DNA from: Escherichia phage BB1
DNA: 64,000 nt
Direction: 5' to 3' (one strand)
Sequence record: NC_106597.1
This document shows positions 7,913 to 63,126 of the stretch, one piece after another. The notes beneath the pieces were generated by a model, which saw only the letters and a program-made list of their open reading frames with translations, was not told the origin of the DNA and did no database searches. A program made the translations under genes and the position numbers. How positions within the stretch are numbered: position 1 is the first letter of the stretch; each line of letters opens with the position of its first letter.

Positions 7913-10051
7913 TTACCTTATATGGATATACCCGTTTTGCAGGTCTATCTTCATTTTGTAAGATCCCTCTGGATTAGAGGATAGTGCGGCTGCACGATCA
8001 TATATAATATTTACACCAATTTGTGATAAGAAAGCGTTATTAGCAACAATTTTACTAGCAGTTACCGTACCATTAACTATCATATCACCATGTAAAACCA
8101 TTGCAGGGCTAGCCCATGCTGAACCATTCCACTGCCTAGTGAATGCTGTTCCTGGTGCCCCACTTTTATACTCGGTTAATACATCATATTTAACAGGACC
8201 AGTACCAAAATTAGATGTAAAAAACGAATTAGCCTGAGAATCATTCCATGCCGTTAAGTTAGCAATAGCAAGAGAATACATTCCAGGACCACGTTGTCCG
8301 TCTGCTCCTGGCCGCCCATCAGCACCTGGTTTTCCATCGGCACCTGGTTTTCCATCAGCACCTGGTAGTCCATCAGCTCCCGGCTTACCATCTACCCCTT
8401 CTGTACCGCTCCATTGAACTACATCTGACCAACTAGTTCCGGATACTAATTGATTAGTAACAGGGTCCAGAGTACCCGTAGAACAGTAAATATTCTGAGT
8501 ATTAGATATTCTATTCGGCGGAGTTTTAGACCAACCAGAAGGTGGGTATGCAGGGCTTGTTGGTTTAGCAGGTAATGAAGTACCTAGAATATAAATAAAT
8601 ACTGTTTGCTTACCTTGTATACCTGTTTCTATATCAATATCGCCATTAGGTGTACCAATTACAACTCCACTAGAAATTCTTAATGTATCACCATCGAAAC
8701 GAATATATTGCGTAGCATTACCAATATCTACTTTTGGCTTCGCAGTAGCATTATCCATGCCCATCCAAATACCAGATTTTGTATCTCCCCAAGTTTTACC
8801 TTGAGTATAAATTGCTGGGTTGTCTTGACCAGTTAAGTTAGTCATTACAAAGTTCGCAGCATTAATGGTTTTAGTTATTACACTTCCATCAACGTTAATT
8901 ATCTTTTTAATAGGGTCAAAAGATATTGGTGCTTTTCCTTCTGCATCTAGAAGACCTATATTAATAGCACCTGTAGCAGCATCTATTAGGAAGGTTTGTT
9001 TCCAGGTAGATCCATCTTTGATCTTACCCTTAATGTACGCGTAATTTACTTCGATACCAGTTTCATTAACAAAACTATTATCTAATGGAGTACTCTCATT
9101 TAATATAAATGTCTGTACTGCGGAATCAGTAACATCTTGAGCATCTGGTCCCCAGGCAATAGATGACACTTTAAATTTATGCTCTACTTTCCATGGAAAT
9201 GATATAATTGTTGCTGACTGAGCAGCACCCACGTTGATTTTTTGTGCCTTAGTCCATCCAGTTCTAGCAAATTCTGCTGAATCTATATATGATAGAACGA
9301 ATTCACGAACGTTGGCGCCTGTCCCTCTATTCCAATCCCATTGCACACGTAAATCATAGCGTTCTTTACCATCCGCTATACGCGCAGCTTTAAACACAAT
9401 ATTAACAGGAGCTGTAGGAGGTACAAAGTTATATCTAACTTCAAAGACAGTAGGATACTCATAGTATCCAGATGAATCAATAGTTACTCCGTCTGGCAGG
9501 GATACTTGTCCAGAAATTCTTACCTTATAGGATCCGATTGGCACACCACCAAACATAATAGTTGGCATCAACGCACCAACATAATATTTAACCCACGGAT
9601 TATTAGCATTAGAATTATTTTTTAATTCTATAGTACAATAATCAGCTTCTCCTGTAGTATCTATATAAACTATTGGCGCTCCAACACCTACGTCTACAGG
9701 CTCTGATTCACATCTAACACCTGTAATTCTAGGTGCTGACTTCATTTTAAAAGTTTGTTTATCAGATAGATTAATACCTATCTGAGCATTAAGTAGTTCA
9801 GAGTCTATTATAGAATCATAAAATGCACCCTGAACTTCATAAGTTGTTGTAGGTTTTAAGTTATTAATAGTTACAGAAAAGGTATCAACTCCAGTAAAAT
9901 CTCTACGAGTAACGTTGCTACCTTCTTTAAGCCAAAAAGATCTACCTATAACGTCATAATCAGAATAGATAGAATGCTGGATATACGCCAACGTATATCC
10001 AGTTAAGACGCTATTTAGAACCATTTTAGCTGGTGCATTATTTGAAATCAT
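7913..10051 (-). CDS. baseplate / central fibre protein (pb4-like) with collagen-like repeat
   Basis: 712 aa; contains [36 protein letters not shown]; position between collar and baseplate hub genes. Confidence 0.6.
8285..8400 (-). repeat. collagen-like G-X-Y coding repeat inside the pb4-like gene
   Basis: Three near-identical copies of ggttttccatc(g/a)gcacctggt on the plus strand encoding the GKPGADG heptad. Confidence 0.7.
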
Positions 10052-28456: not shown

Positions 28457-30229
28457 TTAGGTAAGGCGTTGAACTGTTACTCGTAGTCTCGGTAAGAAAA
28501 CTGCAGAACCTAAACTAACGTGTAGTATAACACCTAATTCTGCATTACCATTACCAAGATTTTTTATTGTATATATAAAACTGTTTCTACTAAAAGCTCC
28601 GCTATCTGGAGTATATTTATAAGCAGAAGTAGTATGGAAAGGCACTAATTTTCCAGGAGGAAGAACTAAAATTTGGTGAAATATAGCATCCCCTCCCGTA
28701 TAACTTTGTGATTTTCTTCCTTGCACCTGAAAAACACTACCATTCCACGTATTTACTGGTAACCCAGCAACATTAAGGTTACCCGATAATATTTCACTAG
28801 TTAGTATAACAGTAGAGTTATTATTTGGTAGGCCTAGTCCAACTGTTGCTAGTGATTTATAAACATTACCAGTGCCCGGATAGGTCGGAGTAATATCATT
28901 ACCAATATAGGCACTAGCCACATTACCGGATAATAGGCGTAAAGGTATTGATGAAGGTCCCCAGACAACACCATTCTCATTACCAATAGTATTATTATTA
29001 GAGTTTACATACCAGGTCTTACTAGCAGAGAACTTATAAATACTAAGTTGTGCTCTTGTACCACTATAGTTGACTGGTGCCCATATAGATCCTTTGTTAG
29101 AGCATACAAATTCACATCTTCCAGTAGTATCCCCAAACACCCCACCATGCGCAGCGTTTACTCCAATATACTCCATATCAGCACGAGAACTTAGATTCCC
29201 TAGAGCATTCTGATTAATAAACTTCCAACCAGTAGTAGATAACTTAACTCCCTTAATAGTAAAGTTGGACGGAGAAATTATTATGTCAGAACCTGTAAAG
29301 GGATTGCTAGAAACAGACATACTACCATTAGAATACCTTAGGTTCAGCACATACCATATAACTTTTGTAGGGGTTACTCCATAACCATCTTGAACTATTT
29401 TTGTATTAGCTGATTGACTTACTAACTTAGTAGTAGAACCTCTACAAACATATCTATACCCACCATCACTAAAGTGCTGTACTATATTGCTAGGGATTGT
29501 TTGTTTGTATCCAGCATACCCCCTAATATTAGAATTACATACATAAAACCAGTTGTGCCCACGTTTACCAGCCCCCATTGGAGCCATCCAGTTAGGATCC
29601 CAATAGTACGTATCACCTGAAGATATAGGAACAGAAGTACTTCCTATAGGATACCCTAGTTGTTTGAAAGTTTCAGCTACAGTAGCACCTACAGGTGCAC
29701 CACCACCTGGTCTTACAACACCATGATAAGTACTATGTAGTACAGTACCGCCAGTACCACTTCTAGCTATAGATTCTTCATGCCCTAGAGAACTATTATA
29801 GGAATAAGTACCTGAAGCTAGACTATTACCAAAAGCAAATCCAGCAGTTTGACTTAAGCTAGCAAATGATCTAAAAGGATCGGCCTGAGGATCGGCCTGA
29901 GTAGAAGAAAGAAACTGCCCAACTTGAGATTGAGTACCATTCAAAAAACCACGATGGGTACCATTAACTTCTATAGCTGTTAGTATAACTCTACCAGGAT
30001 CATTACTCTTTAAGTTAGCTATTGCAGAAGGCATCTGGCATACATAGAAACCATTCCCAGCACTACTTAATGCGCTCTCATAAGTGCTTTCTACTAATAC
30101 GAAGGGCATATCAGAATGAAAAATAGTATTAGTACTAGGGTTTTTATGAGCATTAATATCTCCACCACTAGCAGTATTTAGTGATAATACAGTTTTACCA
30201 TCACTATATTTTCCAGCGAAAAAACCCAT
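28457..30229 (-). CDS. receptor-binding tail protein (pb5/Oad-like)
   Basis: 590 aa Gly/Ser/Thr/Asn-rich protein divergent from the llp-like gene, as oad and llp are arranged in T5. Confidence 0.6.
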
Positions 30230-30254
30230 ATAATCTCCTATTATAAAAATGTAT

Positions 30255-30283
30255 TTGCTTTCATCCCTCTATTTTGCTATAAT
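30255..30283 (+). promoter_or_regulatory. strong sigma70 promoter of T5 PN25 type driving the lipoprotein gene
   Basis: TTGCTT - 17 bp - TATAAT followed by AGATTCATAAATT; AT-rich upstream region. Confidence 0.7.
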
Positions 30284-30314
30284 AGATTCATAAATTAGAA
30301 ATGGAGAGATAAAT

Positions 30315-30581
30315 ATGAAAAAGTTTGTGATTGCACTAGTTGCCGCAGTTATGTTATCTGGTTGTGCACCTGCTCCCAAACCATTTTGTACAGGATTTGT
30401 AAAATCTTTTGGTGGTGTGGGAGAAGAACATTACGGTCTCAAGGTTCAAAAAGTTCGTATTAAGGGAGATCGCTTTCCAGTAGTACAGCTCCGTACTAAG
30501 TTTGGATGGTGGGATCTCAGTCAGTTTGACCTTAAATATGGTGATTGTAAATTTAAACTAGAACAATCTAATTACCTGTAA
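30315..30581 (+). CDS. llp: lytic-conversion lipoprotein (Llp-like receptor-blocking lipoprotein)
   Basis: 88 aa; signal peptide with lipobox LSGC; divergent from the receptor-binding protein gene. Confidence 0.7.
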   Translation: MKKFVIALVAAVMLSGCAPAPKPFCTGFVKSFGGVGEEHYGLKVQKVRIKGDRFPVVQLRTKFGWWDLSQFDLKYGDCKFKLEQSNYL

Positions 30582-30628
30582 TTAGTATAAAACAAAAAGA
30601 CATCCAAGTAAACTAAATTTTTTATTTC

Positions 30629-30967
30629 TTGGATGGTGTACTGGCAGAAAACACTATGCAAGAAAATGAGAAGCCCTTCCAGGAACCCATGCCACTTGAG
30701 ATGAATCCTAGGGCAAAAGCAGTTCATGATGCAATTAATGAAATCATTCAGGATGTCATACAAGACACTATGGAAGATGTAATGGGAACATCATTTCTTC
30801 TAGAAGAATCTGGATTTGATGAAATGATGGATCTCGTAGGAACAGTTATAATGGTTCGTGCAATTGCTAGAATATTCCAAATACCACATTTACGGGAGCA
30901 TGAAAGACATGTCAAACGGCAACAAAAGAAAGAACAGGCGCGGAGAAGTGTACGAAGCGTGGATTAA
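30629..30967 (+). CDS. hypothetical acidic protein
   Basis: 112-aa ORF; 3' part overlaps next ORF in another frame, true extent uncertain. Confidence 0.3.
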   Translation: MDGVLAENTMQENEKPFQEPMPLEMNPRAKAVHDAINEIIQDVIQDTMEDVMGTSFLLEESGFDEMMDLVGTVIMVRAIARIFQIPHLREHERHVKRQQKKEQARRSVRSVD

Positions 30968-31043
30968 CATTTACGGATTTGGCTTTGTATTATTCCTAAT
31001 CTTCGTAGGTTTTTGGTTAGCAGCTATGGCGGGGTGGATCTAA
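30900..31043 (+). CDS. small membrane protein
   Basis: ORF 30858..31043 with likely internal start; C-terminal hydrophobic helix; stop overlaps next start (TAATGG). Confidence 0.3.
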   Translation: MKDMSNGNKRKNRRGEVYEAWINIYGFGFVLFLIFVGFWLAAMAGWI

Positions 31044-31150
31044 TGGAATGGGTAATTATTGCACTACTGGGGATTGTGATTATTGGGCAGTGTATTTTAG
31101 ATAATCACTTAGCTAGAATTGAAACCTTACTATCGGAGAAACGTAAATGA
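31043..31150 (+). CDS. small membrane protein (35 aa)
   Basis: MEWVIIALLGIVIIGQ...; below the ORF-track threshold; ATGA overlap with next gene. Confidence 0.3.
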   Translation: MEWVIIALLGIVIIGQCILDNHLARIETLLSEKRK

Positions 31151-31341
31151 TGGAAGTGGCAGTTACACTAATAGTAATATTAGTCTGGGTAATCCTCATT
31201 GCCTCTCGTATCGTGTATATTCGCCTAAAAACTCTAGAAGCCCAGGTAAAACAACAACAAGTTGCGCTAGAAAAGCTAGTACTACTGCAACGGTGTGATA
31301 GCACCCGTATTCTGCAAATTGAGAAGGAATTAGATGTTTAG
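31147..31341 (+). CDS. small membrane protein (64 aa)
   Basis: N-terminal TM helix followed by a coiled-coil-like segment. Confidence 0.4.
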   Translation: MMEVAVTLIVILVWVILIASRIVYIRLKTLEAQVKQQQVALEKLVLLQRCDSTRILQIEKELDV

Positions 31342-31579
31342 TATTGTAATTGCTTTTATTATCGGGATACTCGCTGGAGTTTTCGGGACGACTGCGGCAA
31401 TCAATAAGCATCGGGAATATATTGCGGGAGTGACGCGGGAGATTGCGGAAAGGGAGCGGAAGTTTGACGAGAAACGTGCGGAGTTTGAGCGGAAGTGGTC
31501 GGATGGATCTCGGGCGTCGCGGAAGAGATTCCGTGAGTTCAGACCAGAACACAGGTTTGATGACCCTTCTATGCGCTAA
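31334..31579 (+). CDS. small membrane protein (81 aa)
   Basis: N-terminal TM helix then Arg/Glu-rich tail; start overlaps upstream gene. Confidence 0.4.
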   Translation: MFSIVIAFIIGILAGVFGTTAAINKHREYIAGVTREIAERERKFDEKRAEFERKWSDGSRASRKRFREFRPEHRFDDPSMR

Positions 31580-31744: not shown

Positions 31745-32479
31745 TTACGCAACTTTTAATTTCTCAATATATTGTTGCGGGCTGCAACTATATTCTGCGC
31801 GTTCTTCCTCGGTCATACCTTCCCAGCATAGTTTTAAACGGTCAGCTAGGAATTGATAATCATTATCATCGTCGAGCGATTCATCAATAAAGGTTTCACC
31901 TATTAATGTTACACCTATTGATAGAATATCATTAACGGCTTGCGCGTCCAGCGTTTTAAATCCGTATGATGCTGCCGCCGATAGCACACCTTTATGATCA
32001 TCAATCATTGTAAAATCAGCGTTCGGATATAACTGTTTAAATAATTCAAAATAATAAGATTTATATACTGCGTCTTTGCTGTGGTATATTTCGCTAACTT
32101 TATCAGCTTTAAAATATTTATGCAGTGTGTCGCGGGAAAATACGCGGATATTGCTATTTCCTCGACCTCGCAAGCCTTGTTTGCGCAAGAAATAATAGTC
32201 CGACTTACTCATCAATCGAGCGGTGCAAATAATGTTTAAAGTATTTGCATCATTCATGCACTGGCGCATATATTCAACCAATGGCAATAAAGTATCTTGC
32301 ATTATTAAATGATGTTTGCAGGCTTCATTTTTATATTTATTTAAATCTAAATTGCCCTCATTATCAAAGCAAGGCGCTACACGATGGAAAGAATTAACGA
32401 TAGTGCCGTCTAAATCCCAAATCATGACGCGGGAAATATGCGGGAAATTACGGAAAGAATTAATAATAGATTTATTCAT
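31745..32479 (-). CDS. dmp: HAD-family 5'-deoxyribonucleotidase (Dmp-like)
   Basis: 244 aa; HAD motif I WDLDGTIV near N-terminus; length matches T5 dmp. Confidence 0.6.
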   Translation of the reverse strand: MNKSIINSFRNFPHISRVMIWDLDGTIVNSFHRVAPCFDNEGNLDLNKYKNEACKHHLIMQDTLLPLVEYMRQCMNDANTLNIICTARLMSKSDYYFLRKQGLRGRGNSNIRVFSRDTLHKYFKADKVSEIYHSKDAVYKSYYFELFKQLYPNADFTMIDDHKGVLSAAASYGFKTLDAQAVNDILSIGVTLIGETFIDESLDDDNDYQFLADRLKLCWEGMTEEERAEYSCSPQQYIEKLKVA

Positions 32480-33302: not shown

Positions 33303-34967
33303 TTATGCGAAGAATTTACCATTCTTAAAGTCGATCAAAGTACGCTGACCGTTTGCATAGGTAATTAAATGCGTTTGCGTCCAGCTTGACGCGCCAACGT
33401 TGTAACCCATATCCAGACTACCAGCTACTCCAGCGGTATAAACGCCACCGTAAATGCTAGCGGTATGGGTGTGTCCCGTGTTTAGCTTGCCCAATTTCTT
33501 AAACTGTTTAGGATTGCCACGACTGCCGTTAATGCCGTTGTGACCGTGTACACCGCACTCAATGCCTGCAATCTTGAAAGATTGGTCAGTGGTTAGGAAA
33601 ATGGCGTTAAACTCACAACCTGCAACCTTGCGCAGCGCATAATCTAGCACGTTAAAAGTATCATCATGATCACTGATCGCCGCGTAAATTGCAGCATTCA
33701 GGCGGTGATATAGTTCGGCGTTGGCTGGATCGTCTTTGATGTTAGCATTACGATCATCTAACCAGCGGGATAGCGCCAAATCGTGATTAGATTCAACAAT
33801 GATTGTTTGAGAGAAATCACGTTCCATTGATTCCAGCACGCGCCCCGTATCGATAAGATCATCCAGAACTTTATCACGTCCAGCGGCATACTGTTTTGCT
33901 AGGAATACACCGGATGCACGGTTATGATGATTGCGCGATGTAAAATCATGCACGTCATGAATAAACTGATATTTAGGTTTAAGAATATCAAGCAAGCTAT
34001 TTTCGCCAGCCCATGACGCAACGGCACAATCATCATCTAATTTTTCGGCGTGAATATCGCCATATTGCAAGCCTAAAACATGCCCCGACGTTTCATAGCA
34101 TCCAGCAGGAGTAGCGCAAACATTCAGATCATAAAACACCCCGCTTTCATCCATCGTTTCAAGCTGGCGAACAAAAAATTCCCCGTCGTCGTCGAACTCA
34201 ACAATAAGCGCACCGAAGTTATGCAGCGCCTCGGCCTTTTGTCCTGCTTTCTGCTGAATGTAGTTTTTGAGCGTTGCCGTTCCGGTTGAATACATACGGC
34301 GCACTACTTCACCTTTTAAAGCTGGCACGCTTTCAGCGGTAATTTTAGCGTGACCAATTGCCAGCCCTTCAATATTTAAAGCCGTTGCAGTTTCTGCAAA
34401 TCCTGAAAGCGGATAGTCTGCGGTAGGCAAAACATTAATTTCAGCCATGAAAGCAAAACGGCGGTTATTTAAAAACACGTTTTTGCTGCAAATATATTTA
34501 TCAAATGCGGGATCGTATTTGATACCGTCTGCACCTTCTCCATTCTGGAAGCCGTTTTTATTATAAATATACTTAGAAACAAGCAAATCAGCACCGATAT
34601 ATTCAGCGAATTTTTCCAGACTTGCTAAAAAGTTTTTATGTGGGAAAGTATTATTCTGAATCGACGTAATAATAAAGCGTTTACCCTGTTTTACTTCCCA
34701 TTGCTCAACCGTACTAGAAACAATCCCCGCCGCTTCTGGGCGCTCATCGTTTTTAATGGCTTTTGCTACTTTTGCCGCTTTCGGTTTAGCTGGTTTATTT
34801 GCTTCCAGCCAGTCGCAGATAGCGGTTGAATGCTTCGTTGTATCGTAGACCGCTTTTGATATATCGTCGCAGACTTCCAGTTTAGTAGCGCGCAGACGTT
34901 TACCATAGAAATTAAAGTCAGCGGCCATTTTCAGGATAACGGTTTGTTTTTCTGCGGAAATAATCAT
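33303..34967 (-). CDS. A1: pre-early protein A1-like (calcineurin-type metallophosphoesterase)
   Basis: 554 aa; metallophosphoesterase motifs GDIHAE, GHNG, GHTH; size close to T5 A1. Confidence 0.6.
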   Translation of the reverse strand: MIISAEKQTVILKMAADFNFYGKRLRATKLEVCDDISKAVYDTTKHSTAICDWLEANKPAKPKAAKVAKAIKNDERPEAAGIVSSTVEQWEVKQGKRFIITSIQNNTFPHKNFLASLEKFAEYIGADLLVSKYIYNKNGFQNGEGADGIKYDPAFDKYICSKNVFLNNRRFAFMAEINVLPTADYPLSGFAETATALNIEGLAIGHAKITAESVPALKGEVVRRMYSTGTATLKNYIQQKAGQKAEALHNFGALIVEFDDDGEFFVRQLETMDESGVFYDLNVCATPAGCYETSGHVLGLQYGDIHAEKLDDDCAVASWAGENSLLDILKPKYQFIHDVHDFTSRNHHNRASGVFLAKQYAAGRDKVLDDLIDTGRVLESMERDFSQTIIVESNHDLALSRWLDDRNANIKDDPANAELYHRLNAAIYAAISDHDDTFNVLDYALRKVAGCEFNAIFLTTDQSFKIAGIECGVHGHNGINGSRGNPKQFKKLGKLNTGHTHTASIYGGVYTAGVAGSLDMGYNVGASSWTQTHLITYANGQRTLIDFKNGKFFA

Positions 34968-37139: not shown

Positions 37140-37262
37140 AGACTATTAATCACGGAAAATCTCATTAGCCAACTAACTATTTCATGATATATAATATACT
37201 TATAAATTAATGAGAAATAATAATTATAATAAATAATAACTACAGTAAATAATAACTATAAG
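37140..37262. repeat. AT-rich tract with reiterated AATAATAACTA-type units
   Basis: About 120 bp of low-complexity A+T sequence between the DnaA-box groups. Confidence 0.5.
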
Positions 37263-47545: not shown

Positions 47546-47577
47546 TAGAATTTCCTCTCTCATTAATTTATGAACTT

Positions 47578-47606
47578 ATTATACAGAATTTTAAGGCTTA
47601 AAGCAA
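47578..47606 (-). promoter_or_regulatory. T5-type early sigma70 promoter
   Basis: Minus-strand TTGCTT - 17 bp - TATAAT then conserved leader ...ATAAATTAATGAGAGAGG. Confidence 0.65.
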
Positions 47607-50659: not shown

Positions 50660-50692
50660 AATATATACCTCTCTTAACTAATTTATGTATAT

Positions 50693-50721
50693 ATTATATA
50701 ATAACTGGGGCTAAAAGTCAA
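50693..50721 (-). promoter_or_regulatory. T5-type early sigma70 promoter
   Basis: TTGACT - 17 bp - TATAAT, leader ...ATAAATTAGTTAAGAGAGG. Confidence 0.6.
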
Positions 50722-57865: not shown

Positions 57866-57895
57866 TTCAAACCTCTCTCATCAATTTATAAATAT

Positions 57896-57924
57896 ATTAT
57901 AGCAAGAAAAGAGAGGTTTAGCAA
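57896..57924 (-). promoter_or_regulatory. T5-type early sigma70 promoter
   Basis: TTGCTA - 17 bp - TATAAT, leader ATATTTATAAATTGATGAGAGAGGTTTGAA then ATG. Confidence 0.65.
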
Positions 57925-62841: not shown

Positions 62842-63079
62842 AAATTCTTTAGTTTACTAAGGCTATTAGCTCGGCGTAACTACAGCACCTTCGCTTCGAG
62901 CGGAAGGAACCGCGTCATCTCGCAAACCCGATACACTATTCAGTTGCCGCTGAATCTAGTGGACTAATCTAGAACTTCTCCCGAATCGTAGGGATCGTGC
63001 TTTTTGGCAGCCAGTCCTAGGTCGAGCTAATACCTTAGTGAACTATGATGAGGATTTCTCCTCATCAATTTATATAAAT

Positions 63080-63108
63080 ATTATAACAAGAAATTAAGCA
63101 TCAAGCAA
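63080..63108 (-). promoter_or_regulatory. T5-type early sigma70 promoter with no downstream ORF (drives a non-coding leader and the tRNA cluster)
   Basis: TTGCTT - 17 bp - TATAAT; leader ATTTATATAAATTGATGAGGAGAAATCCTCATC forms a hairpin over the SD-like GAGGAG; no ATG follows. Confidence 0.6.
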
Positions 63109-63126
63109 CTGCATTTTTCTTGAAAT

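Follow-up and report, generated by a model that had tools for sequence, protein, structure and literature searches.

The llp locus of Escherichia phage BB1: a probable BtuB-blocking lipoprotein gene behind a promoter of the T5 early family

The window analysed here is a stretch of 64,000 nucleotides from Escherichia phage BB1 (NC_106597.1). At the locus under study it carries llp, a gene for a small lipoprotein precursor, and on the opposite strand the gene of a receptor-binding protein (RBP) of the hrs/oad type, with 85 bp between the two (Table 1). The genes for the large and small terminase subunits lie on one flank and dmp (31745-32479) and A1 (33303-34967) on the other. The right ends of T5 and BF23 are laid out in the same way, and the order and divergent orientation of llp and the RBP gene are the same as in T5, BF23 and phiR2-01. 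Over the 2.6 kb around llp, identity is 98.5% with Salmonella phage FGS009 and about 95% with DT57C, DT571/2 and D1G. An exact look-up identified Llp as QNL29666.1 and the RBP as QNL29562.1, entered for Escherichia phage BB1 as 'receptor-blocking protein' and 'receptor recognition protein', respectively; because both proteins are identical to these entries, they are already deposited and named. A literature search did not find a paper on phage BB1. The locus is a known and ordinary one: public records (BB1, BF23, DT57C, D1G and AKFV33) carry annotations for the gene, the class of its function and the promoter. Judged from its sequence, the locus very probably belongs to a T5-like phage of the BtuB-using type known from BF23 and DT57C, where it makes up the llp half of the host-recognition module.

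Table 1. Features of the llp locus and related promoter-like sites (positions in the 64,000-nucleotide window).
Feature	Position	Strand	Description
RBP gene (hrs/oad-type)	28457-30229	-	590 aa, divergent from llp
A-rich block AAAAAT	30245-30250	+	about -45 to -40, upstream of -35; part of the T5 early-promoter consensus
-35 element TTGCTT	30255-30260	+	T5 early-class, non-canonical; read from the sequence
Extended -10 TGcTATAAT	30275-30283	+	17-nt spacer after -35; TATAAT at the -10 position annotated in D1G
Discriminator AGATTC and 25-nt leader	30284-30314	+	predicted start A at 30290
Shine-Dalgarno GGAGAG	30303-30308	+	ATG of llp at 30315
llp	30315-30581	+	88-aa lipoprotein precursor ORF, translation begins MKKFVIALVAAVMLSGC
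Signal peptide of pre-Llp	30315-30362	+	aa 1-16: MKK, hydrophobic core, lipobox L-S-G before Cys17
Mature Llp	30363-30581	+	72 aa, from predicted lipidated Cys17 to the stop codon; Ala at +2; conserved Cys25 and Cys78
Further TATAATAGATTCATAAATT match	9806-9824	+	2-3 mismatches
Further TATAATAGATTCATAAATT match	37190-37208	+	2-3 mismatches
Further TATAATAGATTCATAAATT match	47565-47583	-	2-3 mismatches
Further TATAATAGATTCATAAATT match	50680-50698	-	2-3 mismatches
Further TATAATAGATTCATAAATT match	57883-57901	-	2-3 mismatches

The N-terminus of Llp matches the Pfam family LPAM_1 (lipoprotein lipid-attachment site) with 23.9 bits against a cut-off of 20. In the Llp family Gly16 and Cys17 are invariant, and so, in 12 sequences, are Cys25 and Cys78, which correspond to positions 9 and 62 of the mature protein. 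By the Lol sorting rules an alanine at position +2 implies the outer membrane, and Llp is therefore predicted to be sorted to it. A single substitution in the mature domain, A35V, separates Llp from BF23 Llp (87 of 88 residues identical), and two residues separate it from the D1G protein (86/88). The Llps of BF23 and DT57C/D1G also resemble it in their length of 88 aa, in the lipobox and in the position and orientation of the gene beside hrs, and the promoter upstream is the same but for 2-3 bases. BF23 Llp was reportedly described as a receptor-blocking lipoprotein by Mondigler and co-workers in 2006, and members of the Llp cluster carry the name receptor-blocking protein. The near-identity to BF23 Llp, together with the identical BB1 entry, bears out the proposal made in the first-pass annotation that the gene encodes an Llp-type receptor-blocking lipoprotein. 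The family is widespread: tblastn with Llp gave matches in 396 phage records, of which about 180 reach at least 90% identity and another 214, from Epseptimavirus-type phages, lie at 60-80%; the Llp of Yersinia phage phiR2-01 matched at 48% identity.

The sequence upstream of llp had been described as a PN25-like promoter. The 46-mer on which this description was based occurs once in the window (30251-30296, + strand; 0 matches expected in shuffles). All elements of the T5 early class are present in register, namely the A-rich block, TTGCTT, TATAATA and ATAAATT at the start; Wang et al. are said to have defined this class in 2005 as TTGCTT N17-18 TATAATA. The 95 bases ahead of llp recur unchanged in 11 further phage loci. 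One of these is AKFV33, whose GenBank record marks a promoter there, 'similar to T5 promoter consensus TTGCTT (N17-18) TATAATA'; the D1G record has -35 and -10 signals at the equivalent positions, and a near-identical sequence in the BF23 record is called a 'hypothetical early promoter'. When the llp upstream regions of this phage, BF23, an Epseptimavirus, phiR2-01 and T5 were aligned together with PN25, AAAAAT and TTGCTT were invariant in all six promoters. In five lineages, the FhuA-type phage T5 among them, the -35, -10 and +1 blocks ahead of llp do not vary, while the flanks diverge. A generic sigma-70 scan of the window did not report the llp promoter, because TTGCTT agrees with TTGACA at only three of six positions. 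The PN25 transcript begins ATAAATTT, and the predicted start of llp transcription is in register with it. The discriminator AGATT is identical to that of PN25 and agrees at 4/5 positions with the ATATT described for the early class (PMC7472727). From these elements we infer an early timing and the start given in Table 1 for llp in this phage, in agreement with Decker et al. (1994), whose title reports that T5 Llp is expressed early.

In view of the above, it is very unlikely that llp is expressed mainly from a longer transcription unit or at another time, late or constitutively, with the promoter-like sequence contributing little. The -35 hexamer, non-canonical and weak when measured against the E. 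coli consensus, speaks for such a scenario, as do the overlapping promoters that the T5 and BF23 records place on the minus strand for the RBP gene. However, no + strand gene lies upstream of llp, the neighbour being divergent; the promoter elements remain invariant across lineages in which the flanks diverge; the same sequence class drives the characterised T5 early genes (PN25, PN26); and T5 llp is, according to the same 1994 title, an early gene.

The relation to PN25 itself was examined by comparison in register with 46 annotated T5 promoter windows covering -55 to +20. The PN25 sequence used as reference matches the T5 feature 'promoter P-N 25' at 100%. Over the 46-mer PN25 is the closest of the 46 T5 promoters (35/46), followed by the ligA promoter and T5_55708 with 34/46 each. 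Over the 75 nt the order changes to the ligA promoter (50/75), P11 (49/75), PN25 (45/75) and the T5 llp promoter (44/75). The llp promoter and PN25 have in common the A-rich block, TTGCTT, the length of the 17-nt spacer, and the ATTTGCTTTCA and TATAATAGATTCATAAATT blocks, with identity from -38 to -28 and from -12 to +7; they differ in locus, downstream gene and spacer sequence. PN25 and the T5 llp promoter have CTGTATAAT at -10, with TG one base closer, whereas the promoter in the window has a canonical TGn extended -10. In T5, PN25 (63043-63117) lies upstream of D2 and llp has its own annotated promoter (110349-110423), and PN25 was rejected as the orthologous llp promoter. Among 27 early-type T5 promoters, 30 positions are conserved at a level of at least 70%; the llp promoter of the window matches 28 of them, PN25 29 and the T5 llp promoter 28. 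By sequence, then, the likeness to PN25 is that of members of the T5 early-promoter family; the earlier description holds in that PN25 is the closest T5 promoter over the 46-mer, but it denotes a family resemblance and not orthology. The 19-mer core is found six times in the window at up to 3 mismatches, against 0.06 expected, and the five further TATAATAGATTCATAAATT matches in Table 1 are probably other early-class promoters of the phage.

A recent duplication or conversion, by which the D2 promoter would have been copied to llp, could explain the first rank of PN25 over the 46-mer, the two identical blocks, and the fact that the version in the window is nearer to PN25 than is T5's own llp promoter (30/46). 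We regard such a copy as highly improbable. The lead of PN25 amounts to one base over two other T5 promoters and is lost to ligA and P11 over the full -55 to +20 interval; the two spacers differ along their whole length; the TGn extended -10 groups with P11 and P-K28a and not with PN25; and the conserved blocks are the family consensus, common to the llp promoters of distant lineages.

Alignment of the RBP with T5, BF23 and DT57C-type homologues, proposed earlier as a check, gave identities of 30% to T5 pb5, 69% to BF23 Hrs and 96% to D1G Hrs (DT57C type), with Llp near-identical to its BF23 and D1G counterparts. The RBP matches phrog_4815 'receptor binding tail protein' (E 1.5e-254) and shares 96.6% identity with its 586-aa counterpart at locus L023, which matches DT571/2. 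DT57C and BF23 use BtuB as receptor; mutations that inactivate btuB confer resistance to DT57C-type phages and BF23, and the cloned llp of DT57C brought the plating of these phages down more than 100-fold but had no effect on T5 (Golomidova et al. 2016, PMC4728585). The phages in the Llp match set with a determined receptor (BF23, DT57C and phiR2-01) are BtuB users, and BtuB is the reported or predicted target of most T5-like phages (PMC4728585 and PMC8594841, among other sources). A receptor other than that of T5, as suggested in the first-pass annotation, is thus well supported, since the RBP is only 30% identical to pb5 and 96% identical to the BtuB-using DT57C type.

The argument that had been used for a different specificity, the length of the RBP, is a weak one. 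The coordinates and lengths given there were right, with 590 aa for the RBP here and 640 aa for T5 pb5 (AY543070), but other BtuB-type RBPs have 585-595 aa and the 590 aa consist of 586 aa plus a tandem duplication of 4 aa. This duplication is a perfect 12-nt tandem repeat in the RBP gene at 29876-29901 (unit AGGATCGGCCTG, 2.2 copies) and is translated as QADPQADP near the N-terminus of the protein, in the presumed receptor-contacting part. It was absent from every phage record searched, and the other members of the 90% cluster of the RBP, with 585-586 aa (580 aa in the D1G entry), all lack it.

Near-identity to functionally tested proteins makes it highly likely that Llp blocks BtuB and thereby stops a second infection. 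That it blocks another receptor, for example FhuA or FepA as other T5-like Llp variants would, is extremely unlikely: T5-like phages with FhuA (T5) and FepA (H8) specificity exist (PMC8594841) and the RBP has its unique 4-aa duplication in the N-terminal region, but Llp differs by a single substitution from BF23 Llp and by two from DT57C/D1G Llp, whose function has been tested, its 24-30% identity to T5 Llp lies mostly in the signal peptide, and the RBP is nearly the same as a BtuB-dependent one.

A comparison of 24 related loci (L007-L029 and L004) bears on the proposed co-evolution of Llp with the RBP. The Llps of these loci are 96.6-98.9% identical and their llp promoter regions are identical or differ at 1-3 bases, whereas the adjacent RBPs fall into at least four classes (586 aa, 97% identical to the RBP of the window; 585 aa, 71-73%; 595 aa, 69-71%; and 595 aa, 65%). 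Because a near-invariant Llp stands beside RBPs that are only 65-73% identical, Llp follows the receptor and not the RBP allele. Co-evolution can thus be maintained at the level of BtuB modules versus FhuA modules, but not within the BtuB group. An Llp that tracks the receptor fits with a periplasmic binding site and with the recombination point that Golomidova et al. proposed between hrs and llp (PMC4728585).

The relation to T5 Llp requires separate consideration. The T5 protein (lytic conversion lipoprotein; PDB 8A60, 7QJF) has 77 aa compared to 88 aa here and blocks FhuA, not BtuB. It is periplasmic and binds the FhuA plug, and a Cys11-Cys58 disulfide ties its termini together (PMC9586334). 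The BtuB-type and FhuA-type Llps are called non-homologous in the literature (PMC4728585 among the sources). BLASTP aligned Llp with T5 Llp at 30% identity over 67 aa (E 1e-4) and full-length hhalign gave a probability of 92%, but this sequence link was rejected because it vanishes once the signal peptide is removed: with the mature domains only, hhalign found no significant similarity (E 0.18, probability 0.3%). A search with the mature-domain profile against 1.84 billion cluster representatives returned its own family alone, phmmer with Llp against PDB sequences gave only noise, and Pfam has no family for either type of Llp. Both mature domains match phrog_1119 over the same profile columns, which is not independent proof of kinship because the profile may contain both subfamilies.

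The Cor exclusion lipoproteins of phi80, N15 and T1-like phages are also small and exclude superinfection via a TonB-dependent transporter, and RefSeq records label Llp 'Cor superinfection exclusion protein', a label inherited from the PHROG name. Against the Cor family NF047972 (NCBIfam) Llp scored 16.1 bits, compared to a cut-off of 31, and only over residues 1-30, the signal peptide; the assignment was rejected.

The AlphaFold model of Llp has a mean pLDDT of 82.6, with values above 90 in most of the mature domain, and consists mostly of beta strands. Foldseek found no significant match for this model in the PDB. In BFVD, a 'super-infection exclusion protein' of the T5-like phage CEC_Kaz_2018 (E 2.5e-3) and, at E 0.06, a 77-aa slur09 lipoprotein were among the matches after phiR2-01. 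The structural evidence gives a weak positive signal, and the cysteines at mature positions 9 and 62 fit the arrangement of Cys11-Cys58 in the T5 protein. The BtuB-type Llp and T5 Llp probably work alike and share a fold, a likeness that does not in itself establish common ancestry. More tentatively, and just short of what we would call probable, the BtuB- and FhuA-type Llps could be divergent members of one disulfide-clamped beta-barrel fold with the same binding to the periplasmic plug and allosteric closing of the extracellular receptor loops. Since the mature domains are without significant sequence similarity, the transfer of plug jamming from FhuA to BtuB draws on fold and context only.

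In the region downstream of llp a 103-aa ORF follows directly on the + strand (30656-30967; phrog_16810, E 1e-53). The similarity to DT57C, D1G and BF23 ends within it, at about 30684, and T5 has only short remnants of it, which makes the interval between llp and the terminal repeat a variable spot. Four short overlapping + strand ORFs of 61, 45, 64 and 81 aa (30858-31579) occupy the place of T5.159-T5.162, which in T5 are single-transmembrane peptides between llp and the terminal repeat. By comparison with BF23 the terminal repeat starts at about 31.6 kb. An 8-bp inverted repeat (CATCCAAG/CTTGGATG) at 30601-30635 is followed on the minus strand by TCTTTTTGTTTT (T-run at 30589-30600). The minus-strand hairpin has a z-score of -2.0, with 6 of 200 shuffles folding as well, and could terminate leftward transcription from the terminal repeat before it enters llp in antisense. 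It does not look like a terminator for llp on the + strand, where it is without a U-tract and has a z-score of -1.5. No + strand terminator was found after llp, so the four short ORFs may be co-transcribed with it. Late genes, llp and the terminal-repeat genes (dmp and A1, from 31745 onward) follow one another in the window, which then continues for another 30 kb; the source assembly therefore probably has the terminal repeat collapsed to one copy or is circularly permuted. The matching BB1 contig has 110,099 bp.

A possible course of events can be described as follows. After full entry of the genome, host sigma-70 RNA polymerase would fire the T5 early-class promoter with a start near 30290, and the short-leader mRNA would be translated to the 88-aa prolipoprotein. 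This would be exported, lipidated on Cys17 and then cleaved by signal peptidase II, after which the alanine at +2 would direct Llp to the inner leaflet of the outer membrane. The mature protein of 72 aa may form a small beta-barrel, probably clamped by a disulfide between Cys25 and Cys78. It would bind BtuB, most likely at the periplasmic face of the plug, by analogy with T5 Llp on FhuA, and the blocked BtuB would no longer be usable for the RBP of the phage itself, which would prevent superinfection and spare progeny from inactivation on debris. The details of jamming the plug from the periplasmic side, which are borrowed from T5 Llp and FhuA, are much less certain than the blocking of BtuB.

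The assignment predicts BtuB as the receptor of this phage and the exclusion of other T5-like phages that depend on BtuB, which would be relevant to phage cocktails. If the two types of Llp indeed have one fold, this would explain how a single near-invariant Llp can serve at least four RBP alleles that are only 65-73% identical, and the BtuB-type protein may then be of interest for structural work on the jamming of TonB-dependent transporters.
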